A stretch of DNA of 64,000 nucleotides from a virus: positions 1 through 64,000 of the IMG/VR virus record IMGVR_UViG_3300034072_000514; one strand, given 5' to 3'. Below the pieces are notes generated by a model that saw only the letters and a program-made list of their open reading frames with translations, was not told the origin of the DNA and made no database searches. Position 1 is the stretch's first letter. Every line of letters starts with the position of its first letter. The position numbers were made by a program, and so were the translations under genes. Shown here piece by piece: positions 3 to 53,392 of the stretch.

Positions 3-753
3 CCGTACGCTACTATTGAGGAGCAGGTGATTTCTGGTGTACACCCGGTAGTGGCGGAATATATGCTACCTACGACCAAACCTCTGGCCCAGGGTGCCCG
101 CCTTGTGGTGCCCCATGTCCTACCCCCTCCCCCGCCCGCCCGGCCCCTACTTGGTACCGTTCTGGCCCAGGGTGAGGCCCTCTGGCCCGACCACCCGTAC
201 CTCCCCTACGTAGGTGGTCTAATTGAGCATGAAAGCTGCATTTCTCTGACTCATTCAAGGTGCTGGAGCCCTACGTCTCGTCTTAAGACAGAAAAGGAGG
301 AAGGCGCAGGCCTTGGGCAATTTCACCAGAGCTTGGAACCCTAAGACGGGTCAGCTAAGGTTTGATGTAGTCCAAGAGCTTATGGAGAGGTACCCTAAAG
401 AGCTTGGAGAGCTTTCATGGAGTAATATCTATCAGAGACCTGACCTTCAGATCATAGGTATCTATCTTAAGCTTAAAGAAAACTATGATCAATACAAATT
501 TACCAGAGAGCCTCTAGCGTTTGCTGATGCTGCCTACAACGGAGGTAATGCTGATGTTCGTAGGGAGATTCGCGCTTGTAAGTTAGGGAAGGACTGCGAC
601 CCTACAATCTGGTTTAATAATGTTGAACGCTTTTGCGTCAAGAAACCGGGCGCACATACTGGCGGTAGGTCAGCGTGTGAGATCAATAGATACCATGTTA
701 GAGATGTATTTAATCGTGCGGAGAAATACCGTGCAAGCTTAGGTAATAAATAA
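3..753 (+). CDS. SLT-domain lytic transglycosylase, 5'-truncated by the window edge. The reading frame breaks once, from the frame of 27..344 to the frame of 313..753.
   Basis: GGLIEHES (catalytic Glu) and GLGQF lie in the first frame and AAYNGG lies in the second. These three SLT signatures are therefore split over two overlapping ORFs. The first frame stays open back to nt 3. Confidence 0.7.
61..220 (+). repeat. GC-rich element, copy E1. It is a divergent copy embedded in the open SLT reading frame.
   Basis: G+C-rich island sharing ccccatg/tacccc/ttggtacc blocks with 42331..42468. A perfect 14-nt direct repeat tctggcccagggtg occurs at 83..96 and 161..174, exactly 78 nt apart. Confidence 0.6.
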
Positions 754-2697: not shown

Positions 2698-3771
2698 ATG
2701 AGCACTGCCACCGCTAAAAAGCCTTTAATCAATTTGAATGCTTACCACTCTAACCTTGGAGTATTTATCCATCCTGTTTCTACTTACCAATCATTTGTTA
2801 AGTGGCCTGATAGTGTTCGGATAAATGGTGTACTTGTAACTGAGTACCCAAAGTTTGGTATTAATAATAACATCATCAAACTGGAATCTATTGATAATCT
2901 CAAGGTAGAAATTCTTACTCCGGGTAGAGATACTCAAGTAGGCTGGCAGCTTATGGATGAGTCCCTTGCGTCAGATAAGATACCGCTGACTTTGACCATG
3001 GAGGAGCTGCACAAGTCATGGTGTGAGGAAGATGACGACTACTTGCTATCTGGCCCAAAACAAAAGCTAGGTGCTCTTTATAAGGAAGCTTACACAAGGT
3101 CAGAGGATGCTTATGTTGAAGCAGAGATCTCTATAACAAACAAAGGAGCTTATCAGATCGATAACTTGTACTCCTCTAACTTCTCAATTAAGCTCGCAAC
3201 TAGCCAGCCTGGGGCTACAGTAGTACAACTGAAAGATATCGCTACTTTTGAAGAGATAGCTAAGATGCTGGTTCCTGAGCTTCTTATTGCAAATGCGCCA
3301 TGCAGGTTATCCGGTACGTTCTTGTTTAATATTATTAGAGCTTACATTCGAGATAACATAAACTCTAAGTATGCAAAGATAACAGCAGATTCAAACAATT
3401 ACTTTATAGTAGCTAGGCGAGTGATAACTCAACCAACACCCTTTAGGAAAGAAGTATTAACTAGAGGAGGTAATAGCTATAGGCCGCCGAGGTTTCAGTC
3501 ATCCTTCGCTAATGAGAAGTATGTGCAGATATTCTCTATGGCATCGCCAGACGCTTACGGTAGCTACCACTCATACGGGCTAGTAAGCGGCTTGGAAGCG
3601 AATAGCCTAGTAGACCTCTATGAGAAGCTAGGAGAAATGTTAAACTTCATTATTCGAGAAATCAACCTGTCAGTATCGAATTGCCCTCACTGCGAAGGGA
3701 CTGGTTTGGTAGAGGCAGGTAATGCGTATACATGGGCAGAAGTCAAGGAAAAGCTCATGAAAAGTGAGTAA
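2698..3771 (+). CDS. Hypothetical protein with a C-terminal DnaJ-type CxxCxGxG motif
   Basis: 357-aa ORF. NCPHCEGTGLVE lies near the C-terminus. Confidence 0.7.
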   Translation: MSTATAKKPLINLNAYHSNLGVFIHPVSTYQSFVKWPDSVRINGVLVTEYPKFGINNNIIKLESIDNLKVEILTPGRDTQVGWQLMDESLASDKIPLTLTMEELHKSWCEEDDDYLLSGPKQKLGALYKEAYTRSEDAYVEAEISITNKGAYQIDNLYSSNFSIKLATSQPGATVVQLKDIATFEEIAKMLVPELLIANAPCRLSGTFLFNIIRAYIRDNINSKYAKITADSNNYFIVARRVITQPTPFRKEVLTRGGNSYRPPRFQSSFANEKYVQIFSMASPDAYGSYHSYGLVSGLEANSLVDLYEKLGEMLNFIIREINLSVSNCPHCEGTGLVEAGNAYTWAEVKEKLMKSE

Positions 3772-3800
3772 ATCTTTGTATCTATAACAGAAGACTTAAT
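3760..3800 (+). promoter_or_regulatory. Early-region repeat, degenerate copy C
   Basis: aaaagtgagtaaatctttgtatctataacagaagactta aligns with copies A and B. It overlaps the stop codon of the upstream gene. Confidence 0.35.
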
Positions 3801-3845
3801 AAAGCTTCTATCTTTTTTGTTAATTATCTTAAATCAGGAGTGATT

Positions 3846-4770: not shown

Positions 4771-4855
4771 TAAAGGCTTATAAGTGAGGCTTCTATGAGG
4801 CCTTACTTGTGATGGTTTTGTTTAGTGTTAGTTCAACTTTAACTAGGAGTAAATT

Positions 4856-6204: not shown

Positions 6205-6246
6205 GCCCTCTGCCGAAAGGTGGAGGGCTTCTCTCTTTTATTTTTT
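6205..6246 (+). terminator. Rho-independent terminator
   Basis: 10-bp stem gccctctgcc/ggtggagggc with a GAAA loop, followed by a T-rich tail ttctctcttttatttttt. Confidence 0.7.
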
Positions 6247-6355: not shown

Positions 6356-8020
6356 TTGATCGAAAACTCCATAATTTCTAATATAATGTTATCTGAAGAG
6401 CAACAAATACTAGCTGAATCAGACGCAAGCCCTCAAGAGCAAGAACCTGTCACTATTTTGGACTGCTTAGTTGCTGATCTTGCTAAACGGCTTTCAGAGC
6501 TGCGAGCAGACAGACAACGGTATACGCACTACCTAAAAGGTACCGATCCAGCCCATCTTATGGAGCTTGGCTATGTATCTCTGCTTGCTGGTATCCAAAA
6601 GAAGGGCACTCTAGTCGAAGTCTGCAGCTCTATTGGTCGGCAGGTTATGGCTATGAAGAAGATGCCGCTAGAATCAGTAGTGGAAGTACATACTGGTTGG
6701 TTTATTCTGATTAGCTTTCTAGAATTAGATATCATCCACTTCTACACAAAGAAGTCATACCACAACAACCGAGCAAGCCAGTACCCTACTTATCACATCT
6801 CAGTGAAGGATTGGGCAGCTATTGGTCAGTTGATGACTATGATTAACAAGGAGCGTGTAGGAGCAATCTTACCCTCTACTAAAGTTCCTGATCCTTGGAC
6901 TTCTGTTTATCACAGCTCGGGAGCTACTATCGTAAAGAAGATTCACTCTTCGATACGTGGGCAACTATCTCCAGAAAAGCAGCCTATACTGTTTAACAAT
7001 CTAAACAAGCTACAGGCAACCGGCTGGCGAATTAATCCTGAAACCTTTTCTGTTTATGAGCAATGTTTGAAGCAGGCTAGCGGGAAGAAGCCTCCGGTGG
7101 ATTCCCCGTTTAAGTTCAGTTCTGAGGAAGACCCGAACCGTAGAGAATCTTTGTTCAGAGAGGCAGAAACAATTAGCAACATCGCTAAGTTGTTCTTGCA
7201 TGAGCCATTCTACCATATGTACAACTATGATTTTCGGTATCGGTTGTATGTTATGACCGCTTACTTACATGAGCAGTCATCTGACAATGCCAAGGGTCTG
7301 CTATTATTTAATGAAGGCGTCCCGTTAGGTAAGGATGGTTTGTATTGGTTAAAGATTCATTGTAGCAACACCTGGGGTCACGACAAGGACACTAAGGAAG
7401 GTCGTGCAAACTTTACATCCAATAATATCAAAGTTTGGATTGAGTACGCTAAAAATCCGCTGATTAACCGTGGTTGGATGAAAGCAGATGCTCCATTTTC
7501 TTTCCTAAGCTGCTGCTTTGAGCTCAAGAAGCTTAGGGACTGGCTCATAGCTGGAAAGAGTATTGAAACATTTGTTAGTCATCTACCTTGCTATATCGAC
7601 GGCTCAACCAATGGTACTCAGCATCTGACAGCGATGTCTAAGGATGAGTCGATTGCACATCTTGTCAACCTGGTTCCGACGGAGCTTCCAGGTGATCTTT
7701 ATATGTACATCGCGGGGCATACCTGGAATACTATTAAGGAGGCGTATGATCGAACACCAAAAGAGATTGTAGCTAAGTTTCAATCTGTCTGGGATGAAGG
7801 CCGCCGATTGCATTCGCTATATGCATCTGCTCCGCCAAAGTCAGAACAGCGTGTTGCGGCTTATGCTAAAGTTTCAGAGTGGCGTAACCATAATCGGGAC
7901 ATCCGAGAAGCTCTCTTTCCGGTATACTGGATGGGCGTTGACAACCCTAAAGACCAGCGTAAAGCAGTTAAGCGCCCTGTGATGACTCTCGGTTACGGAG
8001 GCACAGCCTACGGCATGGGT
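6356..8020 (+). CDS. T7-like single-subunit RNA polymerase, exon 1
   Basis: DFRYRLY (T/DxxGR region), YIDGSTNGTQH (motif A) and KRPVMTLGYGG (motif B). The start is uncertain (TTG 6356 or ATG about 6386). The exon ends at the U at 8020. Confidence 0.9.
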
Positions 8021-8800
8021 TAATATAGGCTCATGTAAAATCTCGTGAATTCGGTGAACAGCCTCTTAGAGGCCAATACCGAGCCAAGCTTAACCGATAA
8101 GGTTTTGAAGGTGTAACGACTATTCCGAAAGGAAGTACATCCAAGTGGATGGAAGCGCGAGACAGCGTTAAAGCTGAAGAGATAGTCTGATCTATACAGT
8201 AATGTATAGCGGTTGCGTCGCTGTAACCGGAGAATATATGGAAGAGATTTGGAAGAGTGTAGATAATTACGAAGGGGCGTATGAAGTCTCTTCTTTAGGT
8301 AGAATTAGAAGTTTAGATAGAGTAGCCGTAGACGGCTCTAATATTAAAGGTAGATTACTAAAGTTTTCATATGATGGGTCAGGATACCATAAAGTGAACT
8401 TATTTAAATTTGGTGAAAATCAATATTTAAAAGTCCATAGGTTAGTAGCTATTGCATTTGTTCCTAATCCTGAAGGTTTACCACAAGTGAACCATAATGA
8501 TGGTAACAAAGAAAATAATTTCTATAAGAATTTAATTTGGTGCACTAATCAAACAAGTACGATCCATGCATACGAGAATAAGTTAACTACCAATCAAGGC
8601 GAAACACATTATAAAGCTAAGTTAGATAAAGAAAAAGTTTTATTTATTAGAGCTTCTACTTTAAGTGTAGCTGAGCTTTCTGATAAATTAGGCGTATCTA
8701 GCTCCAGTATAAGAGATGTGATTAATCGTAGGTATTGGAAATCTGTGTAAATTAAGCGACGCAACGGTGTTAGCCTAACAAACTGACATGAACATAAATG
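8021..8800 (+). mobile_element. Group I intron in the RNAP gene
   Basis: It interrupts motif B. Joining 8020 to 8801 gives ...YGMG|QQVNDDT in frame. The core gaattcggtgaa..gtaacgactat..gatagtctgatctata is shared with the intron at 17650..18433, and the intron ends in ...cataaatG. Confidence 0.8.
8238..8750 (+). CDS. Intron-encoded HNH homing endonuclease (NUMOD4 + HNH + C-terminal HTH-like)
   Basis: WKSVDNYEGAYEVSSLGRIRS, then HRLVAIAFVPNP..VNHNDGNKENN..NLIW. The ORF is looped out between complementary segments ggttgcgtcgc and gcgacgcaac. Confidence 0.85.
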   Translation: MEEIWKSVDNYEGAYEVSSLGRIRSLDRVAVDGSNIKGRLLKFSYDGSGYHKVNLFKFGENQYLKVHRLVAIAFVPNPEGLPQVNHNDGNKENNFYKNLIWCTNQTSTIHAYENKLTTNQGETHYKAKLDKEKVLFIRASTLSVAELSDKLGVSSSSIRDVINRRYWKSV

Positions 8801-9415
8801 CAACAAGTGAATGATGATACCAAAGGTATGTCTGAATACTTGCGGGATAAGGAACCAATGTGGGGTACTATGCTTGGCAAGCTAGTCTATAAAACCTGTT
8901 ACGAAAAGCTACCTGGACCTGCGCGGATGCTTGCACTGTTTAAGCACCTTGCGGACATCTCTAATGCTCGCGGTGAGTATCTGAGCTGGACAGTACCTAT
9001 CACCAATGCTCCGGTTGTGCAAGCGTATCGGATGCCTGTAGCTAAGCGAACTAAGCTTACTTATGGGGAAGAAGAGTTGAAAGTGCAGATCGAAGCCTGG
9101 GATGAAGCAAGGCTGAATGAGTCTGCGTCTAGCACTGGTGCAGCTCCAAATATCGTCCATAGCTTTGACGCGGCTCATCTTGCTATGGTGCTTGACTCAG
9201 CAGATTTCCCTATGTCTGTTATTCATGACTCATTTGGTTGTCATGCGGGTAATATGGATAAGCTTTTTGTGTTAGCTCGAAAGGAGTTCGTAGAATTTTA
9301 TGAAGTAGACCCACTCGCTCTGTTACTTGAGGAACTGATGGTTCCAGAGCTAATGCCTGAACGAGGTAACTTAGACATTTCTAAAATTATGGAAAGCGAC
9401 TATGCATTTCTCTGA
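8801..9415 (+). CDS. T7-like single-subunit RNA polymerase, exon 2
   Basis: Contains SVIHDSFGCH (motif C) and ends in ...DYAFL. Confidence 0.9.
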   Translation, partial: QQVNDDTKGMSEYLRDKEPMWGTMLGKLVYKTCYEKLPGPARMLALFKHLADISNARGEYLSWTVPITNAPVVQAYRMPVAKRTKLTYGEEELKVQIEAWDEARLNESASSTGAAPNIVHSFDAAHLAMVLDSADFPMSVIHDSFGCHAGNMDKLFVLARKEFVEFYEVDPLALLLEELMVPELMPERGNLDISKIMESDYAFL

Positions 9416-10709: not shown

Positions 10710-10881
10710 GAAAGATCGCTATGAAGACCTGCTTAAGAATTTTGACTGGCAATTCGAATTTAGCAGTGAGCACTCAGTATGGCGGGAATACAAAGACAAG
10801 CTGGCAGAGCTTAAGAGGCTACAGCCGAAAGTAGATCCAGACCGCACTATCTGGAATAAATATTACCAATCGATGTTTTAA
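10681..10881 (+). CDS. Hypothetical protein
   Basis: 66-aa ORF overlapping the end of the previous gene. Confidence 0.5.
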   Translation: MSALTLYKSEKDRYEDLLKNFDWQFEFSSEHSVWREYKDKLAELKRLQPKVDPDRTIWNKYYQSMF

Positions 10882-10883
10882 TA

Positions 10884-11267
10884 ATGCAAATTTCTGAAAT
10901 TATCCCTAATGTGGCTGAACTGCAAGACGCCTTAACACGCAGCTTCAAGGAAGGGCGCGAAAAGATCATTAAATCCGCTGAGGAGAGTCTCGCTAACCAA
11001 ATCATGTTTAGGTTGTTCGCTGCGGCACAACAATGTAAGCGCTCAGTAGATATCGACTGGCAATCAATGCTAGAAGATTACCCGACAGTATTCCAGAGAA
11101 AAGCTATTAGATCGGTGCACGAGGTACTGCTGCAAAAGGGATATCTTGTATATGCTGAAGGTATGAAAGGTGTTGCTTGGAGGCTGAGATCTAGTAAGCA
11201 TGCAAGCAGTATGACCATTATTGTGCCTGGTCAAGTAGAAATTGAAGAGCCGGAAAATAAAGAGTAA
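10884..11267 (+). CDS. Hypothetical protein, last gene of the early block
   Basis: 127-aa ORF. Confidence 0.6.
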   Translation: MQISEIIPNVAELQDALTRSFKEGREKIIKSAEESLANQIMFRLFAAAQQCKRSVDIDWQSMLEDYPTVFQRKAIRSVHEVLLQKGYLVYAEGMKGVAWRLRSSKHASSMTIIVPGQVEIEEPENKE

Positions 11268-11350
11268 ACATGACAAAGACCTTGATAGCCTTTAATTTAG
11301 GCGTAATGTGGGTGCTTTAATAGCGAGCCTAACAGTAAAATACCTACTTT

Positions 11351-11520
11351 AGCGAGTCTGCTCGGTGGCGGCGACCTCAGGGGTGACCCGCCTGGTACCC
11401 AGGTTGGTCCAGCTAGGTACCCCGGCGCGGGTGGGATGGGGGTACCCATGGGCCGGGTCAACGGCTCGCCCTAGGCCCAACCACCAGGGGACGCTAAAGC
11501 CCCAGTGGCCTCCCCCGGTT
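11351..11520 (-). repeat. GC-rich element, copy E2, inverted relative to E1 and E3
   Basis: Hand count gives about 70% G+C over 11381..11440. 11433..11451 is the exact reverse complement of 42358..42376 (19/19). 11391..11417 is the reverse complement of 42392..42418 (25/27). It contains three GGTACC palindromes. Confidence 0.65.
11481..11510 (+). promoter_or_regulatory. GACGCTAAAGC motif, copy A (candidate phage-RNAP promoter ahead of the replication block)
   Basis: caccaggggacgctaaagc is identical over 19 nt to the copy near 20207..20225. The 11-nt core recurs at 42612..42622. All copies are followed by agtggc or aggtggc. Confidence 0.4.
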
Positions 11521-11742
11521 AATAATAGTATTATTATATTATTGTTAACCATATCTCTTAGTGGTACATACAGTTCCCTGTAGTATCCCTCTCTTGTTAG
11601 CTGTTAGTTTACTTACTAATAACTTACTATGTAGAGCTTACCTGCTGTTAGCTTGCAGTAGGTATTATTCTCATCTAACCTCCCTAATTGCTGTTTTAGA
11701 AGGATAATTTATGTTTAAGTTCTAATAAGGTTTATAAAGCAT

Positions 11743-12303
11743 ATGGCAATTCTCAAGAACATTGAAGGTCGTTGGTTCAAGCTGTCTCCTAATCGTCCAG
11801 CTCCTGCATTTGGTGATTCAGGCCCTAAATGGGAGTTTCAAGCAATTGCTCGTACTAAAGAGCAAATGCAAGAATGGAAAGACCTCGGCATCAATGTCAA
11901 GCCAGTTGAGGAAGATGGTAAAATTGTCTATAAGGCCCGCTTTCAGCGCCCAACTCACAAGCGCCCAAAAGACGGCAAACCTGCTGAGCCTAATGAGCCA
12001 GTGGAAGTTGTGAGTGGCCAGTTGACTCCACTTGATCCTCAGCTCATTGGTAACGGCAGTATTGTTAATATCGTGATCTTTCAATATGATTACGAAGTTA
12101 AGAGCAAGGATGGCAGGTCGAGCAAGAAGGGTAAGGGTACCATGCTCAAGAAGGTTCAAGTAAAGAAGCTTGTTCGTTATGAAGGAACGCCAGAGGAAGA
12201 CTTTGAAGAAGAAGACTTTGAAGAAGTTGAAGTCGCTGAAAAGGCAGAGAGCACTGCTACTAGCGGCAGCGGTGACGCTTCTTCTGAGGATGCAGACTTC
12301 TGA
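11743..12303 (+). CDS. T7 gp2.5-like single-stranded DNA-binding protein
   Basis: LIGNGSIVNIVIFQYDY resembles the gp2.5 OB-fold strand. The long acidic tail has a 15-nt tandem duplication (EEDFEEEDFEE) and the protein ends in ...EDADF. Confidence 0.65.
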   Translation: MAILKNIEGRWFKLSPNRPAPAFGDSGPKWEFQAIARTKEQMQEWKDLGINVKPVEEDGKIVYKARFQRPTHKRPKDGKPAEPNEPVEVVSGQLTPLDPQLIGNGSIVNIVIFQYDYEVKSKDGRSSKKGKGTMLKKVQVKKLVRYEGTPEEDFEEEDFEEVEVAEKAESTATSGSGDASSEDADF

Positions 12304-16292: not shown

Positions 16293-17649
16293 ATGACTAG
16301 ATTAGTGTTCGACATTGAGGCGAATGGGCTTCTTAAGGATGTCTCAAAAATATGGATGCTTTGTGCGGAAGATCTGGACACAGGAGTTAAATACGATTTT
16401 TGTGACTATGACTCTTCCTGCTATCCTCTTAAGGAGTACAAAGATCTGTTAGCGGAAGCTGATGAGTGTATCGGTCACTTTGTGCTAGGCTACGACTTTC
16501 CTGCACTCGCTAAAGTAGACGGCTTCGTTCTACCTAAAGGGGTTAAGGTTAAGGATACGTTGCTGATGTCGCAGGTGTTAGACTATATGCGATTCGGCTA
16601 CGATGGTCATAGCTTAGATCGGTGGGGTGAATATCTTGGAATCCCTAAACCTGAGCATAAAGTCTGGACTGAGTACTCTCCTGAAATGTTGCACCGCTGT
16701 CGGGAAGATAGGAGGATTAACGTTGAAACCTACAAACTTTTAGTTAATGAGTTCAAGAAGCTACACAGCAAAAAGCCGGTAATTGCCCAGTCACTGCGTA
16801 ATGAGCATAAATGTTTACAGTTTGTAACCCAAGCTGAAATCCTTGGTTGGCCTTTTGATGTACCGGCTGCTGAGAAGCTATTGTTGGAGATCGAGGAGGA
16901 AGAAAGAAAGGTAGCACAAAAAGTTGAACCACTTTTACCTCCATTAATTCGTCTTGCAGACAAGGAAATTAAGGAGCCTAAATGGACAGCTTCCGGTAAG
17001 TACCATAGTCATATTGCTAAGTATTTCGAGATCGACCCTGAAGACGGTCTTCGTGACTTTCCTACAGTAGTAGGCCCGTACATGAAGATTGATCTTATCA
17101 AACCTGATATGGGCTCGATCGAAGCAGTTAAGCAGCTGTTATACTCTATTAATTGGGAACCAGATGATTGGACTTGGAAAAAGGAAGGACGGTCTCTTAC
17201 TAAGAAAGCCCCTAAGCTCTCCACAAGTTCTCTTTTGCCGCTTGGAGAAATAGGAGAGGCAATCGACAAGTTCTATACGCTTAGAAGTAGGGCTTCAATG
17301 GTCCGCGGACTTCTTGAAGAAGTTGATGATAATGGAAGAGTTCACGGTAGCTGCTTTCTTATTGGAACACCCACAGGACGCTCCACCCACAAAGGAATTG
17401 TTAACATACCAGGTGGTGAAGCTCTATATGGCGAAGCAATTCGGAAACTATTCATAGCTAGACCTGGTCACAAAGTTATTGGTGCGGACTCGTCTGGTAA
17501 TCAGATGCGTGCTTTTTGCCATTATCTGCGTAACGATGAGTACACGAATGAGGTGATCAACGGGGATGTCCATACTAAAAATATGGAGGTTCTGCAAGAG
17601 ATTGTCCCGTCTACCACACGGAAAAAGGCTAAGCCATTTTTGTATGCGT
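16293..17649 (+). CDS. Family A DNA polymerase, exon 1
   Basis: VFDIEANGL (Exo I), GADSSGNQMR (motif A) and RKKAKPFLYA (first half of motif B). Confidence 0.9.
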
Positions 17650-18433
17650 CGAATGAGAGCGCAGTTTAAACCGGGAGAATTCGGTGAATCCCCGCTAGGG
17701 CAATACCGAGCCGAGCTTAAGTAGCAATACTTTTGAAGGTGTAACGACTATCCCGAAAGGGAGTACACTCAAGCGAGTGGAAGCACCCGGCATGAGAAAT
17801 CATGATGATATAGTCTGATCTATATAGTAATATATAGCTGTTGCCGCACAACAGAGAAATAAATGGAAGAAGTTTTTGTACCAATAACAAATTACGAAGG
17901 TATTTATGAAATATCGAATTTAGGTAGAGTCAAGAGTTTAGCCAGGGTATCTGCAAGCGGAGCTAAACTAGCACCAAAGATCTTAAAGACATCAGTCAAT
18001 GGCGCTGGTTACCTTAGCGTTTCGCTGTATAAAGGCGAAGGTAAGTGGACAACAAGAGTTCATTGCTTGGTAGCCGCTGCTTTTGTAGAAAATAAGAACC
18101 CCGCTAAATTCAATATAATAAACCACCTTGATGGAGACAAACTCAACCCTGCTAGCACAAACTTAGAGTGGAGCGACCACTCAGGCAACGCACTGCACAG
18201 CTACGCTAGCGGTTTAAGTAGTAACCAAGGTATAACTCACCGATCGAACAAGCTAACTGAAGATGAAGTTAGGTATATTAGATCACAAAAGGGATTGGTA
18301 CATATAGATGAGCTAACTAGTAAATTCAACGTACACCGCCAGACCATTTACGGTATTTGGCAAGGTAAGTACTGGAAGAGTTTGAAATAAGCGGCAACGG
18401 TAGTAATCTAGCGAATTACTGCGAACACAAATG
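17650..18433 (+). mobile_element. Group I intron in the DNA polymerase gene
   Basis: Joining 17649 to 18434 gives KPFLYA|FLFGGGADK, a complete Pol A motif B. The core is highly similar to the intron at 8021..8800, and the intron ends in ...cacaaatG. Confidence 0.8.
17863..18390 (+). CDS. Intron-encoded HNH homing endonuclease (NUMOD4 + HNH)
   Basis: ITNYEGIYEISNLGRVKS, then HCLVAAAFVENKNP..INHLDGDKLN..NLEW. Confidence 0.85.
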   Translation: MEEVFVPITNYEGIYEISNLGRVKSLARVSASGAKLAPKILKTSVNGAGYLSVSLYKGEGKWTTRVHCLVAAAFVENKNPAKFNIINHLDGDKLNPASTNLEWSDHSGNALHSYASGLSSNQGITHRSNKLTEDEVRYIRSQKGLVHIDELTSKFNVHRQTIYGIWQGKYWKSLK

Positions 18434-19653: not shown

Positions 19654-20155
19654 TAACATATTAAGAGCTTATCGAGGATGTAACTTATTCGAAGAGCTAA
19701 CTCAAACACAAAAAGAAGCGCGGTATAATGCGTTCTATATGCGATGTGCATTTAATGCTGCAGAGCTATCTTTCGCTACTAGGCGTAAGGTAGGCGCAAT
19801 TGCAGTTAGGCACGGTAACATTGTGGGTTTTGGTTTTAACGGCACTCCCGCTGGTGCTGCTAACCAATGTGAAGACGAATGTGGTAACACTTTGCCATCT
19901 GTTATACATGCAGAAGCCAACTTGATATCTAAGCTAAATATGCTGGGTATCATACTTTCTGAAGTTAGTATCTACGTAACTAAGGAGCCTTGTAAGAGTT
20001 GTGCTGGCCTAATAGTTAATGAGTTGGAGTATCTTGACAGCTCTAGCTTTAAACTATTTTTTGCGGAAAGCTCAAAAACTAAACCACAAGAAGGGTTGGA
20101 ACACTTATACCATCTAACAAAAGCACAAATTTTTAAGGTAGAAAAACCATGCTAG
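19625..20155 (+). CDS. dCMP (deoxycytidylate) deaminase
   Basis: Zinc-binding motifs HAEANLI and PCKSCAGLI. Confidence 0.8.
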   Translation: MSQLLQKPPNNILRAYRGCNLFEELTQTQKEARYNAFYMRCAFNAAELSFATRRKVGAIAVRHGNIVGFGFNGTPAGAANQCEDECGNTLPSVIHAEANLISKLNMLGIILSEVSIYVTKEPCKSCAGLIVNELEYLDSSSFKLFFAESSKTKPQEGLEHLYHLTKAQIFKVEKPC

Positions 20156-20868
20156 CTCTGATAGACGGCGACCCTCTCGTGTACACCGCGAGCTGGGGCA
20201 AGGCCACACCAGGGGACGCTAAAGCACACCTCAGGTGGCTGGTGAACGATGCGATTGAGACTACTATGGCTGAGGACTATCTTATAGCAATAGGTAACAG
20301 GGATAGCTCACGTAATTTCAGGTGTGAGCTGTTTCCTTTCTATAAGAAGTCTGCTACACGGCAAGGCTCTAAGGAGAAGTTGCAAGACTGGTTTCCTAAG
20401 ATCAAAGACTGTCTTGCCGGGATGCTTAATGTTTATGAGTGCGATGGGTACGAGGCTGACGATCAGCTGCGTATCTGGGCAGGTGAAGCTGAAAGAAGCT
20501 CTGACCCTTTTGTGATACACTCTATTGATAAAGATCTGGACGCTATTGTTGGATTACACTACAACTCTAAGCGGAAGGAATTTTACAAAGTACCGCAGGA
20601 ATACGCTGATTGGTTCTTTTGGAAGCAATGTCTTATGGGAGACTCCATTGACAATATTCCAGGGATACCTCGCGTAGGTCCTGTTACCGCAGATAACATT
20701 TTAGCTCCCGGCAAGAACTGGGATGACTGGGAACGACTCACAGTAACTGCCTACAAAGGTAAATACGGTGATCAGTGGTGGGAGTACCTTATGGCAAATG
20801 CTAGATTGCTTCATATCTGGCGCTTTCATAATGACCACTTCCAACTTGACAAGGCTAAGTACGACTAA
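20149..20868 (+). CDS. 5'-3' exonuclease / flap endonuclease
   Basis: LIDGDPLVY, YEADDQL, IDKDL and the H3TH segment GDSIDNIPGIPRVGPVTA. Confidence 0.85.
   Translation: MLALIDGDPLVYTASWGKATPGDAKAHLRWLVNDAIETTMAEDYLIAIGNRDSSRNFRCELFPFYKKSATRQGSKEKLQDWFPKIKDCLAGMLNVYECDGYEADDQLRIWAGEAERSSDPFVIHSIDKDLDAIVGLHYNSKRKEFYKVPQEYADWFFWKQCLMGDSIDNIPGIPRVGPVTADNILAPGKNWDDWERLTVTAYKGKYGDQWWEYLMANARLLHIWRFHNDHFQLDKAKYD
20205..20240 (+). promoter_or_regulatory. GACGCTAAAGC motif, copy B, located inside the FEN coding sequence
   Basis: 19-nt identity with the intergenic copy A, followed by tcaggtggc. Confidence 0.3.
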
Positions 20869-22158: not shown

Positions 22159-22596
22159 ATGGCTACTGTCAAGAAAATTGACAATGGCCACTGGATGTTC
22201 CCTGAACAGCTAGACTTTAAAAAGGCCCAAGGATTCATCTACGTTATTCGTAGAGTTTCTACGGGCCAAATTTATATAGGCAAAAAGAACTTTCGTAGTG
22301 GCGCTAAAAAAGATTTTGGGCGTCAATCAAACTGGAGATCATATACCAGCTCATCAAAAGATGTAAATACGCTTATAGAAACGTTTGGTAAAGAGGACTT
22401 CCGGTTCTTTGTTGTAGAACAATACTACACCAAAGGTGGCTTAGGCTGGGCCGAAACGTGGTCCCAATGCTATGCTGAAGTAGCATCAAATCACGTGAAA
22501 TACCTAAACAGGTTAATTGAGAAAGTCAGCTGGAAATCTACAGAGAAGGTTACAGACAGACACAAAGATAGATTAACTAAACTCATGAATCTATAA
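22159..22596 (+). CDS. Free-standing GIY-YIG homing endonuclease (Seg-like)
   Basis: GFIYVIRRVSTGQIYIGKKNFRSG near the N-terminus. Confidence 0.65.
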   Translation: MATVKKIDNGHWMFPEQLDFKKAQGFIYVIRRVSTGQIYIGKKNFRSGAKKDFGRQSNWRSYTSSSKDVNTLIETFGKEDFRFFVVEQYYTKGGLGWAETWSQCYAEVASNHVKYLNRLIEKVSWKSTEKVTDRHKDRLTKLMNL

Positions 22597-24302
22597 TGGG
22601 AAAAGTAGTCAAAGCACATGTAGCTTGCTACGACACAGAAGGTTGCGGCAGCAGTGATGCGATGAGCATTTATGACGATGGTTTTGCTCACTGCTTTGCC
22701 TGCAACAAAAACTTTAAATCACGTGAGGACGGTGACGAACCAAGTCATACTCATGTGGAACGGAGTCAAAATAAATTGACAACAAAAAACAACGTACCTA
22801 GTATTTTAGAAATCGGTGAGTACGGTGTTCGTGGGTTCCAGAGTCGACAAATTAAAAAGGCTACCTGCGAGCATTTTGGAGTTAAAGTTAGTATTGATAG
22901 CTCCACTGGAGAGTTCGATGCTCATTATTATCCGTATACATCAAAGGGTAATGATGAGATTCATGGCTACAAAATCAGAAGGATGCCTAAAGAGTTTATT
23001 GTGTCAGGTAAGCAAAAAGGCTTATTTGGCGCTAATAAAGTAGACGGTTCCTCGGACAAAATGATTGTAATTGCCGAGGGCGAAATTGATGCTATGTCAA
23101 TTGCGCAAGCTTGGTTTAATAAATACGCAAAGTGGTACCCTGTTGTCACAATGGGTAGCGCGTCAAATGTAAAGGAGCTTCTAAACCACCGAGAGTGGAT
23201 TCGCTCATTTGATAAGGTAGTTTTATGGTTTGACAATGATGAGCCAGGCCGAAAAGCAGTATCTGAAGCTGCGCGCATTATCGGCTATGACAAGTGCTAT
23301 GATGTGCAGTCAGCTTTTAAGGATGCTAATGAAGCACTCTTATCAGACCCGAAAGACCCATCAGTAATCCTAAACCCGATTTACTCGGCTAAGCCATTCA
23401 GCCCGGTTGGGATTGTGTCTTCAGCATCTACTTGGGATATCTACAAGAAGAGCTCAAGCGCACAGTATGTCCCTTACCCTCCGTTCATGGAAACCCTTAA
23501 CGCTAAGAATTACGGCAGGCGTATGGGTAGTATCACGCTGTTAACATCTGGTACTGGTATGGGTAAGACATCTTGGGTGAAAGAGGATCAGTTCTTCCTG
23601 CACAAAACCCGACCAGCGGATGAGCGTATTGGTGTGCTGTCTCTTGAAGAGTCGGTAGCAGAAGCGGTTCAGAATCTTATGGCGCTAGAAGCTAATAAGC
23701 GTATTCAACTGCCAGATGTAGGTATGACAGATGAGGAAGAGCGTGCTTATTGGGAAGCTACTATGGGTAGTGACCGCTTTATGTTCCTGGACCACCAAGG
23801 CTCTATGGAGGACTCCTCGCTGGTAGATAAGATGGAGTACATGTGTCTCTCCGGTTGTAAGTTCTTGTATTTGGACCACATTACTATTGCTGTTAGTGAG
23901 TCTGCTAGTGCAGGTGCTGGTGACACTAATACTGCTATTGACAGCCTTATGTCTGACTTGCTTAAGCTAGCAAAAAGGCATGATGTATGGATTTGCGTTA
24001 TCTCGCATCTGCGCAAGACACCAAATGGTCAAAAATCATTTGAAGAAGGTGCAGTTCCTAGCGAAGATGATCTTAAGGGCTCAGGGTCTCTTAAGCAAAT
24101 CCCTATGCAAACATTTGCCATCTCTCGCAATAAGATGGACAAAGACCCTATTAAACAAAATACATCCATGTTCTGGGTGTTGAAAGACCGATTCACTGGA
24201 CGTACAGGATACGTAGACTCCTACCGATTTGATGAAGTAGATGGTCGATGCCATCGTGTAGATGCGGTGGAAGAGTCTTTTGAAGCGCTGGATTCAGAAT
24301 GA
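22596..24302 (+). CDS. Bifunctional primase-helicase (T7 gp4-like)
   Basis: N-terminal Cys4 zinc finger (CYDTEGC...HCFAC), TOPRIM (IAEGEIDAMS, LWFDNDEPG), and DnaB-type Walker A SGTGMGKT and Walker B FLYLDHI. Confidence 0.85.
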   Translation: MGKVVKAHVACYDTEGCGSSDAMSIYDDGFAHCFACNKNFKSREDGDEPSHTHVERSQNKLTTKNNVPSILEIGEYGVRGFQSRQIKKATCEHFGVKVSIDSSTGEFDAHYYPYTSKGNDEIHGYKIRRMPKEFIVSGKQKGLFGANKVDGSSDKMIVIAEGEIDAMSIAQAWFNKYAKWYPVVTMGSASNVKELLNHREWIRSFDKVVLWFDNDEPGRKAVSEAARIIGYDKCYDVQSAFKDANEALLSDPKDPSVILNPIYSAKPFSPVGIVSSASTWDIYKKSSSAQYVPYPPFMETLNAKNYGRRMGSITLLTSGTGMGKTSWVKEDQFFLHKTRPADERIGVLSLEESVAEAVQNLMALEANKRIQLPDVGMTDEEERAYWEATMGSDRFMFLDHQGSMEDSSLVDKMEYMCLSGCKFLYLDHITIAVSESASAGAGDTNTAIDSLMSDLLKLAKRHDVWICVISHLRKTPNGQKSFEEGAVPSEDDLKGSGSLKQIPMQTFAISRNKMDKDPIKQNTSMFWVLKDRFTGRTGYVDSYRFDEVDGRCHRVDAVEESFEALDSE

Positions 24303-27150: not shown

Positions 27151-27886
27151 TAAATCTGGTGCTCGTAAAATCTATTGAATTGCTGGGATAGCTCTAGTAG
27201 CCAATCAGCAGCCAAGCTTACTGACCTGAAAGAAAGGTCAATATGAAACCACATCCAATTTACACTAAGTACTCTGCTAACGAGTTAGGTAAAATTATTG
27301 GAATTAGAGGCGAGATAACTCCGCACTTCCATAAAAGTACGGGTTACCTGAGATTTTCTATCAGGCATGATGGCAAAATCAAATCTATTGCCGCTCATAG
27401 ATTTATTTGGGAATGTATTAACGGGTTAATTGCCGATGATACACTAGAAATAAATCATAAAGACGGTGATAAGACGCACAATAAGCTAGTAAATTTAGAG
27501 CTGGTTACAGCTTCTGAGAATTGTTTACATAGGTCTACACTTTACTCCGAGACAGGTAGAGGGGAGTCTAATGCAGCTGCTAAACTAAGTGAAATACAGG
27601 CAAAAGAGTTAATATCTCTTCTACCTTATAAACGTAATGTCGAGCTGGGTTTACAATTTGGTCTTCACCCGCAGTATGTTTCTTTAATTAGGACAGGTAA
27701 GCGGTGGAAGCATTTACAATAGTGGTCAGTAAGAAGGTTCAACGACTATCCCTAAGGGGAGTACACCTAAGTAGGTGGAAGCAGTAGATACAGGAAACTG
27801 TAATGATATAGTCTGATCTATATGGCGACATATAGCTGCAAGTAAAGTTGCGGGTATTGATTAACGACCAATACTGAACATAAATG
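27151..27886 (+). mobile_element. Group I intron in nrdB
   Basis: Joining 27150 to 27887 gives WSI|RDETLH (second ExxH iron ligand) in frame. The 5' part (aattgctggga..cagcagccaagctta) resembles the intron at 52628..53392. The intron ends in ...cataaatG. Confidence 0.8.
27243..27722 (+). CDS. Intron-encoded HNH homing endonuclease
   Basis: HRFIWECINGLI...INHKDGDKTHNKLVNLE. The ORF is looped out between tactgacc and ggtcagta. Confidence 0.8.
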   Translation: MKPHPIYTKYSANELGKIIGIRGEITPHFHKSTGYLRFSIRHDGKIKSIAAHRFIWECINGLIADDTLEINHKDGDKTHNKLVNLELVTASENCLHRSTLYSETGRGESNAAAKLSEIQAKELISLLPYKRNVELGLQFGLHPQYVSLIRTGKRWKHLQ

Positions 27887-41780: not shown

Positions 41781-41857
41781 CCCTCTTATACGCTTGCTGG
41801 GTACCTTCGGGTGCCTGGTGGGTGTATAAGAGGGGTATTTCTCTTCTATTTTTTTTG
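41781..41857 (+). terminator. Strong compound hairpin terminator closing the replication block
   Basis: 11-bp outer stem ccctcttatac (41781..41791) / gtataagaggg (41824..41834), an inner ggtacc-ttcg-ggtgcc hairpin, then a T-rich tail ending in tttttttt. A further 8-bp hairpin lies at 41731..41762. Confidence 0.65.
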
Positions 41858-41885
41858 CTTTTATTTTGCTATATTTTGGAGGCCT

Positions 41886-42302
41886 ATGAGCTTACTCGAT
41901 AGAAAAGGTCCGGTATTCTATGTATATTTACACTATGAAATCGTAAATGGTAATAGGGAAATTGTGTATGTAGGTAAGGGTTCAGGCGGTAGGGCATGGG
42001 ATGCTAGACCTACTACTAGAGGTAATAACGGAGGGCATAATGACCATTGTGGGTGGATATGCGATAAGATCCTTAATGATGTACCGTTTGTCCAGCTATT
42101 CGCTACTAAAATCCTGAGTAGTGAGGCACTAGAAATTGAAAAGAGGTTGAGAGAACAGTATAAGCCTCGGTTTAATGTCTCTAGTGGTAACTCAAATCTA
42201 AGTAACTCAAATCTAAGTAACTCAAATCTAAGTAACTCAAATCTAAGCGCTAGGGGCATGACTGTTGGCGATCTGAAGGCTTCTGCTTTGACGGTGAGCT
42301 AG
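41886..42302 (+). CDS. Free-standing GIY-YIG-type endonuclease with a C-terminal pentapeptide repeat
   Basis: VFYVYLHYEIVNGNREIVYVGKGSGGRAW, with (SNSNL)x4 near the C-terminus. Confidence 0.6.
   Translation: MSLLDRKGPVFYVYLHYEIVNGNREIVYVGKGSGGRAWDARPTTRGNNGGHNDHCGWICDKILNDVPFVQLFATKILSSEALEIEKRLREQYKPRFNVSSGNSNLSNSNLSNSNLSNSNLSARGMTVGDLKASALTVS
42187..42246 (+). repeat. Perfect 15-bp tandem repeat x4 (gtaactcaaatctaa)
   Basis: Read directly from the sequence. It is in frame inside the GIY-YIG ORF. Confidence 0.95.
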
Positions 42303-42330: not shown

Positions 42331-42468
42331 GCTCCACCTTGGGCCTGGGAGCCCTCCCCATGGGTACCCCCATCCCGACCCCACAAGGGTGCCTAGCCGG
42401 ACCAACCTGGGTACCAGACGGGCACACCGTGGGTTCTGGCAGGTGACAGGCGGCTGCGGGGTGACAAA
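42331..42468 (+). repeat. GC-rich element, copy E3
   Basis: Shares 19/19 and 25/27 blocks (inverted) with E2 and is collinear with E1. It is intergenic. Confidence 0.65.
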
Positions 42469-42529: not shown

Positions 42530-42936
42530 CCTCACACTGACCATCCCTCATAACCACACCATACCCTCACCTTCCATTCCTACTTCCTCACGGGCACCCG
42601 GTACACGAGGTGACGCTAAAGCAGAAGTGGCGGGTCTGAGAGGTGGACTGCCGGGAGCATGGACTGGGGACTGTAGGGTGGACTGGACCTGGTAGAAACA
42701 TGCTATGAGACACTACTATTAAAGGTAGGAGGGTAGGGTGGAGGGTTCTCTATAATATTATAATATACCTTAAGGTACCTAATATATCCTTAATATACCT
42801 TTAAGATACCGTAGCGTAAGCTGCTAACCATGATTAATCAAATAATTAAAATCAAATAAATAAATTATAAAGAATTTTATAGTATCTAACAGTACCTAAT
42901 AGATACTATAAGGTTCTCTTTATAGGGTTTTTATAT
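42530..42936 (+). promoter_or_regulatory. Structured non-coding region: C-rich tract, G-rich tract with GGACTG x4, AT-rich repeats and a 10-bp inverted repeat
   Basis: GGACTG starts at 42645, 42661, 42668 and 42680. taatatacct-TAAG-gtacc occurs at 42761..42779 and 42791..42810. tatagtatct (42878..42887) pairs with agatactata (42901..42910). Confidence 0.45.
42603..42635 (+). promoter_or_regulatory. GACGCTAAAGC motif, copy C (candidate promoter ahead of the morphogenesis block)
   Basis: acacgaggtgacgctaaagcagaagtggcggg has the same core and the same downstream agtggc as copy A. Confidence 0.4.
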
Positions 42937-43773: not shown

Positions 43774-44430
43774 ATGAGCGCAAAGACTACAGGTCCTGGT
43801 AGGACTATTAAGCGCAAGGCACTTGTAAATATTCAACCCTTGCACTCTTCATCTCGGCTCGGTGAGCTTGGGATGGATCCACTTCAGGCTACTATTGATA
43901 ACATTAGGGCTATGGAGTTGCAACTTTATATGATGAGGCAGTTGCCTAAGCGGACTCTTATTGGTGAGGTAACGCTTCAAGGGCAGATCTCTAAGGCTTT
44001 GCAGAGCTTGATTCCTTATGGTTATCTTACTGCTGCTGAGGCTGAACGGCAATTGGCTATTATGAGGGAGAAGGGTGTAGGGGATGCTGAGGGTGATGAG
44101 GGGATTCAGATCTTTCTCACATCGCAGGACAATGCTGTATCTGCGGAGATTTCGATGGGAAAACACAAGGTGAGTACGTTTCCAGAAAACCCGAATATCG
44201 AAACTAACACTATTGGTGCCCCAGAATCTACATCCACTGGTGCCACTGCATTTGTGCCTGATGCAAATATCCCTGAGGAGTTACGTGGAATGCACTATGC
44301 AGACCGTGTAGATATTGAAGCTGGTATCGCTGTGTACCAGACAGAGGATGGTGAAATTAAGGATCTTAGTAAGACCTCAAGTAGCACTATCGGCTCTGTT
44401 ATGTCTAGTAACGGACCTTCGCATGCCTAA
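43774..44430 (+). CDS. Hypothetical protein, possibly the small terminase subunit (by position only)
   Basis: 218-aa ORF directly upstream of and overlapping TerL. RBS is taggaggg. Confidence 0.4.
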   Translation: MSAKTTGPGRTIKRKALVNIQPLHSSSRLGELGMDPLQATIDNIRAMELQLYMMRQLPKRTLIGEVTLQGQISKALQSLIPYGYLTAAEAERQLAIMREKGVGDAEGDEGIQIFLTSQDNAVSAEISMGKHKVSTFPENPNIETNTIGAPESTSTGATAFVPDANIPEELRGMHYADRVDIEAGIAVYQTEDGEIKDLSKTSSSTIGSVMSSNGPSHA

Positions 44431-52100: not shown

Positions 52101-52627
52101 AAGAGCTATCCATCCAGCTAGGGGCTATGATCGGTCCTGCTACTGAGGCACTTACTCAAGCAGGCCGTATGGAGATATTTATTCGTAATGAAAAGGACGT
52201 TCTTAGTTTGGGTAGGCTGATGATGAGCACTACTCAGAGAGACCGACGAATTAGAGAGTTCCTTGAGCACCCTCTTATTCGCTCTCATGATGCAGAAGAA
52301 ATTCCTAAGATTTCTCGTATGGCACTTGAATATGCCCGCGTATATGATCATGTTGGAGGTAATTTCGGTGATCTCGCTAAGCTACGTACTTATAACACAA
52401 AGCTAATGATTGAGAACGACGCTTCCTCTTCGGGAGCTCAGATTATTGGGCTCTCTACGGGTGATCGATCTATCTCTATTAATAGTAATGTGCTTGCAAC
52501 TGACAAGAAGAACCGACTGTATGACTTGGTCGCTATGGATACTGCTAGTGACCCAGAGTTCCATGCTATCAAGGCTCTTTCAGGAGCTAACATACAGTGG
52601 ACCGATCTTGCAAAAGCAGCTAAGGCT
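49184..52627 (+). CDS. MuF/SPP1-gp7 head-morphogenesis domain fused to a single-subunit RNA polymerase, exon 1
   Basis: YRFTAVLDARTSAICSGLDGKVF..PPMHWNCRSSTVPV (MuF), AQIDGRGRVYY (T/DxxGR) and MIENDASSSGAQIIG (motif A). Confidence 0.85.
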
Positions 52628-53392
52628 TAACATAATGGGTCTTTTAAAATTCCGTTAATTGCTGGGACACCTCACGAAATGAGGCAATCAGCAGCCAAGC
52701 TTAAGTAGGAATACTTTTGAAGGTTCAACGACTAGAGTGTACAATCCAGGCCGGATTATGAGACTCGTAGGGCGCAAGTGCGTTCGAAACGCGGAACAGG
52801 TAGAAATACTTGAAGATATAGTCTGAACTATATAGTGATATATAGGATTAATTGGGACACAAATATGGAAATAATTTGGAAGAATTTCGAAGATACTGAC
52901 TATATTGTTAGTAATACTGGTATAATTATAAATACAAGAACTAACAAAACTATTAACCAGTTTCCGGGAGGTACTGGTGGGTATATGATGGTCAATATCT
53001 GGCACAATAAAATGAACAGAATTGTTGCTGTACATCGTGTAGTGGCAGAAACATTTATTCCAAATCCGTTAAATAAGAGAACTGTAAATCATATCGATGG
53101 CAATAAGCTTAATAATTTCGTAAATAATTTAGAGTGGTCTACCTATTCTGAAAATTTGAAGCATGCAGTTGATACAGGGCTAAACCATCGAGGTATGGCA
53201 AAGCCTAACGCCAAATTAACTGACGATAAGGTAATTGAAATACGTAAACTCTTCCTTAACGGGGCTACAAATAGTGTAATAGCAAAGTTGTATAATGTTG
53301 CTGACGGAACTATTAGCCAAATTCGTAACGGATTCACATGGAAACATGTACAATTAATCGATAGTAATTAACGCCTACTATTTAACATAATG
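52628..53392 (+). mobile_element. Group I intron in the MuF-RNAP gene
   Basis: Joining 52627 to 53393 gives LAKAAKA|QNMVSFYGAG in frame (motif B K..YG). The core aattgctggga..cagcagccaagcttaagtag..ttgaaggttcaacgact..gatatagtctgaactata is related to the other three introns. The intron ends in ...acataatG. Confidence 0.75.
52865..53371 (+). CDS. Intron-encoded HNH homing endonuclease (NUMOD4 + HNH)
   Basis: WKNFEDTDYIVSNTGIIIN, then HRVVAETFIPNP..VNHIDGNKLNN..NLEW. Confidence 0.8.
   Translation: MEIIWKNFEDTDYIVSNTGIIINTRTNKTINQFPGGTGGYMMVNIWHNKMNRIVAVHRVVAETFIPNPLNKRTVNHIDGNKLNNFVNNLEWSTYSENLKHAVDTGLNHRGMAKPNAKLTDDKVIEIRKLFLNGATNSVIAKLYNVADGTISQIRNGFTWKHVQLIDSN

Follow-up and report, generated by a model that had tools for sequence, protein, structure and literature searches.

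A GC-rich island at the early/middle boundary of a Naomviridae-like phage combines a predicted phage-polymerase promoter unit with a copy of a small repeat

We examined a 64,000-nt stretch of viral DNA, positions 1 to 64,000 of the IMG/VR record IMGVR_UViG_3300034072_000514 (hereafter, the window), and focused on a GC-rich island at 11351-11520, designated E2, which lies at the early/middle gene boundary of an uncultured Naomviridae-like phage. Comparison with related loci (L numbers below) makes it secure, at the level of sequence, that the island is composite: a predicted promoter unit for the phage RNA polymerase is preceded by a copy of a small GC-rich repeat, here called the core. Two further cores, E1 and E3, were found in the window, and an orthologue of the E2 core was found in a related phage locus, L032. 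The core may be a DNA-level boundary or binding element beside phage promoters; this reading, which we prefer tentatively, is weighed against its alternatives as the evidence is presented.

Composition and inverted match of the island

The G+C content of 11351-11520 was 70.6% (G62 C58 A25 T25), close to the 70% of the initial annotation, compared with 39.5% and 31.5% in the 200-nt flanks and a mean of 44% in the window. The initial annotation had reported two blocks shared with E3 in inverted orientation, and both were reproduced: 11433-11451 and the reverse complement of 42358-42376 are identical, and 25 of 27 positions agree between 11391-11417 and the reverse complement of 42392-42418. The exact match extends to 20 nt (11433-11452 with 42357-42376), and the full inverted match spans 71-78 nt at 83-85% identity (11380-11457 versus 42352-42428; blastn E=6e-16). 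For a 19-mer from this match, shuffles of the window gave an expectation of 0.00 chance matches. Three GGTACC sites at 11394, 11416, and 11441 (23 in the whole window) and a cctgg-tac-ccagg mini-hairpin at 11391-11403 were likewise found as annotated. The positions of all features are listed in Table 1.

Table 1. Features of the island, its paralogues, and the associated promoters in the window
Feature	Position	Strand	Remarks
E2 core	11351..11481	- (relative to E3/E1)	Inverted match to E3; orthologue at L032 705-808
Hairpin, 23 nt	11386..11408	+	ACC-CGCCTGG-TAC-CCAGGT-T-GGT; overlaps AGGTTGGTCC and the first GGTACC site
Invariant block	11401..11410	.	AGGTTGGTCC; overlapped by the 23-nt hairpin
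Canonical G-quadruplex motif	11429..11452	+	GGGTGGGATGGGGGTACCCATGGG; on the non-template strand in E2
Invariant block	11433..11452	.	GGGATGGGGGTACCCATGGG; overlapping perfect palindromes GGGTACCC and CCCATGGG
Predicted promoter for single-subunit phage RNA polymerase	11482..11500	+	CACCAGGGGACGCTAAAGC; probable start at G11499
GC-rich initial transcribed segment	11501..11520	+	CCCAGTGGCCTCCCCCGG; belongs to the promoter unit
AT-rich leader	11521..11742	+	~30% G+C; runs up to the first middle gene's start codon
First middle gene	11743..12303	+	186 aa, no assigned function; homologues follow the promoter in all relatives examined
Third promoter copy	20207..20225	+	Inside the 5'-3' exonuclease gene; no adjoining core
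E3 core	42337..42436	+	Paralogue of E2 in opposite orientation; nhmmer E=2.7e-24; after GIY-YIG-like ORF
Second promoter copy	42604..42622	+	CACGAGGTGACGCTAAAGC; ahead of packaging/structural genes; terminase, PhoH, and portal downstream
E1 core	79..179	+	Diverged member; nhmmer E=3.6e-16 with a profile that includes E1

A predicted promoter for the T7-like RNA polymerase

The initial annotation had treated 11351-11520 as one unit. The left part, 11351-11481, belongs to the repeat, whereas the right ~40 nt form a predicted promoter plus its initial transcribed segment. The 19-mer CACSAGGKGACGCTAAAGC occurs three times in the window (11482, 20207, and 42604), compared with 0.03 expected. All three copies are on the + strand, which in an open reading frame (ORF) scan also carried every long ORF of the window. 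In a gapped scan of both strands, the promoters scored 16-18 and the next-best site at most 10.5. Aligned with ATTTAGGTGACACTATAGAAG, which we take to be the SP6 promoter consensus, the copy at 42604 agrees at 14 of 17 positions and shares AGGTGAC-N-CTA-N-AG; on the same assumption, the start would fall on the G after AAA, corresponding to G11499 in E2 and to G20224 and G42621 at the other two copies. A T7-like RNA polymerase gene interrupted by a group I intron, with exons at 6356-8023 and 8798-9415, lies at 6356-9415 (PF00940 matches in public gene calls), and its product is 43.5% identical in amino acid sequence to the RNA polymerase of DSS3_VP1, which together with DSS3_PM1 is the closest isolate (roseophages, Naomviridae). 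We conclude that 11482-11500 is a predicted T7/SP6-type promoter, the cognate polymerase of which is encoded in the same genome.

The promoter was also found upstream of the gene homologous to that of the 186-aa protein in L001, L006, L032, L034, and L035 (39-79% protein identity). Lineage variants are CCTGACGTTAAAGAAC in L007-L009 and TAGGGTGCGTTAAAGA, which occurs twice in DSS3_VP1, and several IMG/VR relatives have two or three promoter copies per contig. The promoter with its GC-rich segment is 97% identical between the window and L032. A short GC-rich segment with CCCCCGG comes after the promoter in L053, L060, and L032, and an AT-rich run comes next, as in E2 at 11501-11560; L053 and L060 have this layout without any core. 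Because relatives that lack the GC-rich core keep both promoter and layout, 11482-11520 lies outside the repeat and is, by its distribution, a promoter unit ancestral in the whole phage group. These comparisons show 11482-11520 to be the predicted site at which the phage's own T7-like RNA polymerase would start middle transcription.

As with T7/SP6-class promoters, 11482-11500 represents a conserved site of ~19 nt that is repeated along the direction of transcription, with the cognate polymerase encoded upstream, and its sequence varies between lineages, tracking the divergence of the polymerase. Unlike those promoters, the sequence is specific to the Naomviridae-like group, only three strong copies occur in 64 kb, and the start site is a predicted one.

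The surroundings of the other two copies had features of their own. The third copy falls among the first 100 nt of the exonuclease gene, where the G+C content reaches 66% locally (20146-20258). The late promoter is preceded at 42530-42590 by a C-rich tract that has hardly any G and contains CCCTCA three times, and it is followed at 42640-42690 by a leader with five GGACTG/GGACCTG repeats.

Conservation of the core

To judge the conservation of the core, we compared the window with L032, using the fourfold-degenerate sites of the adjacent gene and the AT-rich leader as a neutral yardstick. L032 is an ENA scaffold encoding a homologue 79% identical to the 186-aa protein, and it carries a core in the place and orientation of E2, followed by the same promoter. 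The fourfold-degenerate sites were 46% identical and the leaders could not be aligned (z=1.5), whereas the cores were 76% identical (z=10) and, when anchored on the promoter, stayed in register for ~95 nt without a gap. The blocks AGGTTGGTCC and GGGATGGGGGTACCCATGGG are identical in E2, E3, and L032. About half of the positions differ in the spacers between the blocks, yet the spacers retain at least ~70% G+C in both phages.

The mismatches between E2 and the L032 orthologue were distributed over the codon phases as 18/14/12. Since they show no codon periodicity, the core is considered non-coding; a protein-coding gene was rejected, as there was no third-position bias and no gene was called here in public assemblies. 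This agrees with the initial annotation, in which the ORFs on both strands were regarded as artefacts of base composition. The core evolves far more slowly than the neutral sites and is therefore likely to be functional. Blocks that are frozen, spacers that vary in sequence but not in length, and a composition that is retained together argue for long-term constraint, because a recent spread would give uniform similarity. This pattern indicates that the core is, as far as such comparisons go, a non-coding sequence under purifying selection.

Folding, terminators, and G-quadruplexes

The initial annotation had proposed a conserved structure with possible covariation. Folded singly, E1, E2 (both strands), and E3 behaved like their dinucleotide shuffles (z=-0.2 to -0.9), and what remained of the proposal was a modest signal in alignments. 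Compared with column shuffles, the four-sequence consensus fold gave z=-2.8 in E3 sense and -2.0 in E2 sense, and the E2/L032 pair gave z=-2.3 to -3.5 on the + strand and -1.8 to -1.9 on the - strand; the preferred strand thus differs, being E3 sense in the four-sequence alignment and E2 sense in the pair. Because DNA palindromes are disrupted by column shuffling as well, RNA hairpins and palindromic DNA cannot be told apart by this signal. Changes on both sides were seen at seven pairs of a structure that was derived from those same four sequences. The covariation noted initially, GGTGCC...GGCAC in E3 versus GGTACC...GGTCACC in E2, is a genuine compensation, in which one G-C pair is replaced by A-U, but the helix is absent in L032 and E1. 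The main E2/E3 stem, GGTACCCC/GGGGTACC, is lost in L032, where GGGTGGGG stands instead. The hairpin at 11386-11408 is kept in E2, E3 (as the reverse complement), and L032, with a change of C-G to U-G and of the loop from UAC to GUA, but not in E1; it sits within a sequence-conserved block.

Neither a terminator signature nor a known RNA family was found at the island. The initial annotation had suggested a terminator or insulator, but 11351-11520 contains no G+C-rich hairpin followed by a T-run, although the early region has canonical terminators of this kind at 764-797, 2647-2670, 4778-4812, and 6205-6228. No sigma-70-like site was found in 10800-12000. The only Rfam matches at the gathering threshold were group I introns elsewhere in the window, 11200-11750 gave no Rfam match even at E<=10, and no tRNA or tmRNA genes were found.

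We then considered G-quadruplex (G4) motifs, defined as four runs of at least three G with loops of 1-7 nt. The 64 kb contained five canonical motifs, four of them inside E1, E2, or E3, and the L032 copy likewise had a motif, with a G4Hunter score of 2.44. Of the dinucleotide shuffles of the elements, 11-47% also held a motif; the excess is therefore a property of composition. The sole canonical motif outside the elements, at 44066-44093, lies in the region of the ORF 43774-44430.

These data bear on an unlikely but credible alternative, in which GC-rich hairpins, a G4, or an RNA:DNA hybrid quadruplex would halt read-through at the end of the early module; the quadruplex would form where the non-template strand is G-rich (E2, L032), much as the mitochondrial CSB II (conserved sequence block II) stops mitochondrial and T7 RNA polymerases. 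The position of E2, at the end of the early module and directly before the middle promoter, speaks for such a structure, as do the concentration of G4 motifs in the elements, the G-runs retained in the spacers despite sequence change, the consensus-fold signal, the conserved hairpin 11386-11408, and the reported termination of T7 RNA polymerase at the G-rich CSB II (PMC4176368, PMC3488243). Besides the missing T-runs, the shuffle-like single folds, and the frequency of G4 motifs in shuffles, it is weakened by the need for no 20-nt perfectly conserved block in a hairpin or G4. Moreover, the G-rich strand is the template in E1 and E3, so that one RNA-level G4 mechanism cannot serve all copies.

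An RNA-level regulator was also considered, namely, a structured non-coding RNA or the pairing of E2 and E3 transcripts in trans, with cleavage or blocked expression as the outcome. E2(+) and E3(+) were predicted to form a duplex of -190 kcal/mol, compared with -115 +/- 6.6 for shuffles (z=-11), and because all transcription is co-directional, both RNAs could exist given read-through. This complementarity is, however, a trivial consequence of the inverted repeat, and E1 pairs much less well (z=-4.2). Together with the absence of an Rfam match and of any detected dedicated small-RNA promoter or terminator, and with a fold that is not kept in the L032 orthologue, this leaves an RNA-level role very improbable.

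Copies and distribution of the repeat

A search with nhmmer using the family profile recovered E2 as 11373-11477 on the minus strand (E=1.9e-21). E1 (about 78-180) was not detected by blastn as a relative, but its Smith-Waterman alignments with the reverse complement of E2, with E3, and with the L032 copy gave z=3.5, 5.2, and 6.6, and none of 300 dinucleotide shuffles scored as high. E1 aligns only in the orientation of E3; E2 is therefore inverted relative to both, as the initial annotation had it. E1 also contains a 14-nt direct repeat, TCTGGCCCAGGGTG, at 83-96 and 161-174, overlapping the region homologous to E3, E2, and L032, and a second copy of CCTCTGGCCC at 179-188.

A search of 643 kb of related loci with a profile built from the four copies yielded no additional member. 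Blastn and megablast searches of E1, E2, and E3 against 50,697 phage genomes returned nothing beyond one 21-nt chance match, and exact-block scans of IMG/VR, 185,579 representative GTDB genomes, and JGI metagenomes returned only chance matches without flanking similarity. The core 19-mer had three chance matches in bacterial genome contigs, again without flanking similarity. Since profile and block scans found no others, the family is known only from one lineage, with three copies here and one in L032. At the equivalent site, the promoter or a variant of it was present and the GC island absent in L001, L034, L035, DSS3_VP1, and the IMG/VR relatives L006-L017; L005 likewise had no core at that site. 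A search for E3 orthologues through the 245-aa downstream protein found no relatives of that protein, and a search through the terminase found relatives without an upstream gap or contigs starting ~2 kb upstream of terminase. We infer that E1, E2, and E3 arose through duplication and inversion within the lineage.

The initial annotation had listed a mobile element among the possible roles. Some traits of miniature inverted-repeat transposable elements were present: the copies occur in both orientations (+, -, + here), and the core is found in L032 and not in L034, L035, or L001, consistent with a gain in one lineage. Terminal inverted repeats and target-site duplications were not found, no direct repeats flank E2 or E3, and the only flanking inverted 8-mer (CTTTAGCG/CGCTAAAG) belongs to the ancestral promoter. 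That the core is a selfish or neutral repeat, a non-autonomous mobile element or a cassette spread by recombination in permissive gaps and functionless for the phage, we regard as decidedly unlikely. Its restriction to one sub-lineage, its two orientations, its foreign composition (70% G+C in a 44% genome), its location in large non-coding gaps, and the abundance of mobile DNA in this genome (among it group I introns accompanied by HNH genes and, next to E3, a GIY-YIG-like ORF) would fit such an origin. What argues against it is the presence of invariant blocks beside near-randomised spacers of fixed length, at a distance where synonymous sites are saturated, along with the lack of terminal repeats, of target duplications, and of any but chance matches in the databases searched.

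Several more specific origins were tried and rejected. That the core is flanked by divergent promoters or terminal inverted repeats was discounted, as the promoter-like remnants beside E2 and E3 were at background level in the gapped scan. It is unlikely that E3 belongs to a mobile GIY-YIG cassette, as the GIY-YIG-like ORF stays in place in L038, which has no core. A host-derived repeat was rejected for want of a bacterial match. A diversity-generating retroelement, with the copies as its template/variable repeat pair, was briefly weighed; no reverse transcriptase was present among the ORFs scanned, and neither copy lies inside a gene.

Some assembly boundaries lie close to these elements. A Logan contig of the same phage extends from window position 99, inside E1, to the intron repeat at 17838, and the L037-L040 contigs begin ~1.9-2.1 kb upstream of the terminase gene, near the position of E3 in this phage. 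Assemblies may tend to break at the E1, E3, and intron-repeat junctions.

Genomic setting and a possible link to replication

E2 occupies the 475 nt that separate the last early ORF from the first conserved middle gene, and the gene for the T7-like RNA polymerase lies upstream of it; this bears out the early/middle boundary of the initial annotation. E3 lies in a 634-nt gap that is bounded by the conserved GIY-YIG-like ORF (41811-42302) and, on the other side, by the genes for packaging and structure (terminase, PhoH, portal). E1 precedes the first early ORF (313-753), a position that we infer to be a late/early junction. The AT-rich leader downstream of E2 begins with a run of almost only A and T (11521-11560) and includes, at 11639-11664, a hairpin that has a T-rich tail.

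This arrangement raises the possibility of a replication origin, formed by the promoter and the A+T run, in which the core would serve as a non-melting clamp or as the factor-binding side. To our knowledge, no GC-rich repeat is part of the T7 origins. The order of promoter, GC-rich segment, and 40-nt A+T run just after the polymerase gene region is common to L032, L053, and L060, and the equivalent leader of L035 has three to four tandem, iteron-like copies of the 12-nt repeat CCTATAGATGAT (L035 2100-2150). T7 origins are themselves T7 promoters (phi1.1A/1.1B, with secondary origins at other promoters), in which an AT-rich stretch likewise follows a promoter, just past the polymerase gene region (PMC8373140). 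E1 and E3, however, have no adjoining promoter and A+T run of the E2 form, and because relatives have this unit without a core, the core is not required for it. A role of the core as an accessory to an origin therefore appears quite improbable.

A possible boundary element acting at the DNA level

Having weighed these alternatives, we tentatively favor, at rather less than even confidence, the reading of the core as an orientation-tolerant boundary or binding element that would act at the DNA level beside phage promoters. In this proposal, the core would work as double-stranded DNA and not as RNA, with palindromic recognition boxes clustered in a GC-rich spacer that is hard to melt. A putative sequence-specific factor, encoded by the phage or the host, would bind the boxes, and binding to double-stranded boxes would explain why either orientation is tolerated. 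Placed at a module junction upstream of a phage promoter, the core would act as a boundary: it would insulate or regulate the neighbouring promoter and AT-rich region against what happens in the upstream module, either by being a roadblock to read-through or by limiting how far the DNA melts.

Four lines of evidence point to the DNA level. The conserved parts are perfect palindromes. The orientation of the core varies even though transcription is unidirectional, with the genes and all three strong promoters on the + strand. The spacing from block to block and from block to promoter is fixed between the two orthologues. Finally, the fold signal is weak and inconsistent between strands, and there is no Rfam match.

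Other observations weigh against this reading. The distance between core and promoter is ~25 nt in E2 and L032 and ~175 nt in E3, and no promoter was found next to E1, in which the palindromic block is also degenerate. Position alone does not prove a boundary, because non-coding gaps are also the only places that would tolerate an insertion. The factor that would bind the core is hypothetical, and the modest consensus-fold signal is equally compatible with an RNA or a DNA hairpin role. Three of the four known copies are of recent common ancestry, so that the conservation statistics rest on few independent comparisons.

A more far-reaching version, which we consider a long shot, is that the core represents a new boundary signal of phages with single-subunit polymerases. 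Through a palindrome-bound roadblock factor, or through a G-rich non-template strand that stops the polymerase like CSB II, it would end one temporal class of transcripts beside a promoter and AT-run that start the next class and perhaps DNA replication. A further possibility is that, through the inversion of E2, the early and middle transcripts would bear complementary tails able to pair.

Comparison with known elements and significance

The closest analogues of the element are the PeSL cassettes (promoter-early stem-loop) of T4-type phages and the repetitive extragenic palindromic (REP) elements of bacteria, but it belongs to neither family. PeSLs are likewise small, repeated, non-coding units in which a promoter is joined to a structured, GC-rich part (PMC2839356, PMC4122927), and like this element, they lie between gene modules and have been implicated in module shuffling. 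However, PeSLs carry sigma-70-type promoters and proven stem-loop terminators, whereas a phage-polymerase promoter is predicted here and there is no terminator signature. PeSLs are also numerous, have a fixed orientation, and flank ORFans, whereas here one copy is inverted and the promoter is older than the repeat.

REPs and bacterial interspersed mosaic elements (BIMEs) resemble the element in being GC-rich, palindromic, and intergenic, in occurring in either orientation and at the 3' ends of transcription units, and in functioning via structure or bound proteins rather than coding. But REPs are units of 20-40 nt with hundreds of chromosomal copies that are mobilised by RAYT transposases, whereas the family described here is ~100 nt long, has three copies, is confined to phage, and had no match in representative bacterial genomes.

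CSB II, the mitochondrial G-quadruplex terminator, similarly presents a G-rich non-template strand to a T7-like polymerase near a replication start region. It differs in lying downstream of its promoter and acting strand-specifically, whereas here the core is upstream of the promoter, the G-rich strand is the template in two of the three copies, and the G4 excess is not significant given the composition.

In Naomviridae DNA, deoxyuridine replaces thymidine, and the family-founding paper is silent on phage promoters, terminators, and GC-rich elements (PMC8323127). Transcription signals of the Naomviridae-like group, to which such deoxyuridine-DNA phages belong, are undescribed. Our analysis yields a promoter consensus for the T7-like polymerase and delineates three transcription units. 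A small, constrained, non-coding element was also singled out; it occurs in the large non-coding gaps that precede the early, middle, and late genes, and the databases searched contained no counterpart of it. If the element were a true boundary or roadblock for a single-subunit polymerase, it would inform temporal control in such phages and could provide an orthogonal insulator for T7-style expression systems. If inert, it would be a tidy example of a lineage-specific repeat.

Additional features of the phage genome

The same phage is also present in public assemblies, including a 79-kb JGI contig. Its genome contains three group I introns at the Rfam gathering score (7951-8209, 17581-17837, and 52579-52845), each followed by an HNH/NUMOD4-type endonuclease ORF (8202-8750, 17863-18390, and 52835-53371, respectively). 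A probable fourth intron at 27729-27842 is a partial copy of the common intron 3' repeat (repeat families D1 and D3) and falls below the Rfam threshold. The GIY-YIG-like ORF beside E3 contains, at 42187-42246, four tandem 15-nt units (GTAACTCAAATCTAA) encoding SNSNL repeats; its homologue in L038 (24-323) has no SNSNL tail.

The region 49184-52630 encodes a 1148-aa protein that has a Mu F domain; after an intron with an HNH gene comes a 335-aa exon at 53390-54397, which matches PF00940 (RNA_pol) with 24.3 bits (cutoff, 22). If 49184-52630 and 53390-54397 are spliced, they possibly encode a second RNA polymerase, fused to a head-protein domain and possibly carried in the virion.

In the early region, the ORF 2698-3771 matches Gad1, an anti-Gabija protein (PF25705, E=8.6e-35). 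A 49-nt direct repeat containing TATCTATAATAGAAG is found at 806-854, 1390-1438, and 3755-3803, with a weaker copy at 22564-22612 (repeat family D2); its first copy directly follows the canonical terminator at 764-797. These repeats are candidate early promoters, for the host polymerase or for a second phage polymerase.

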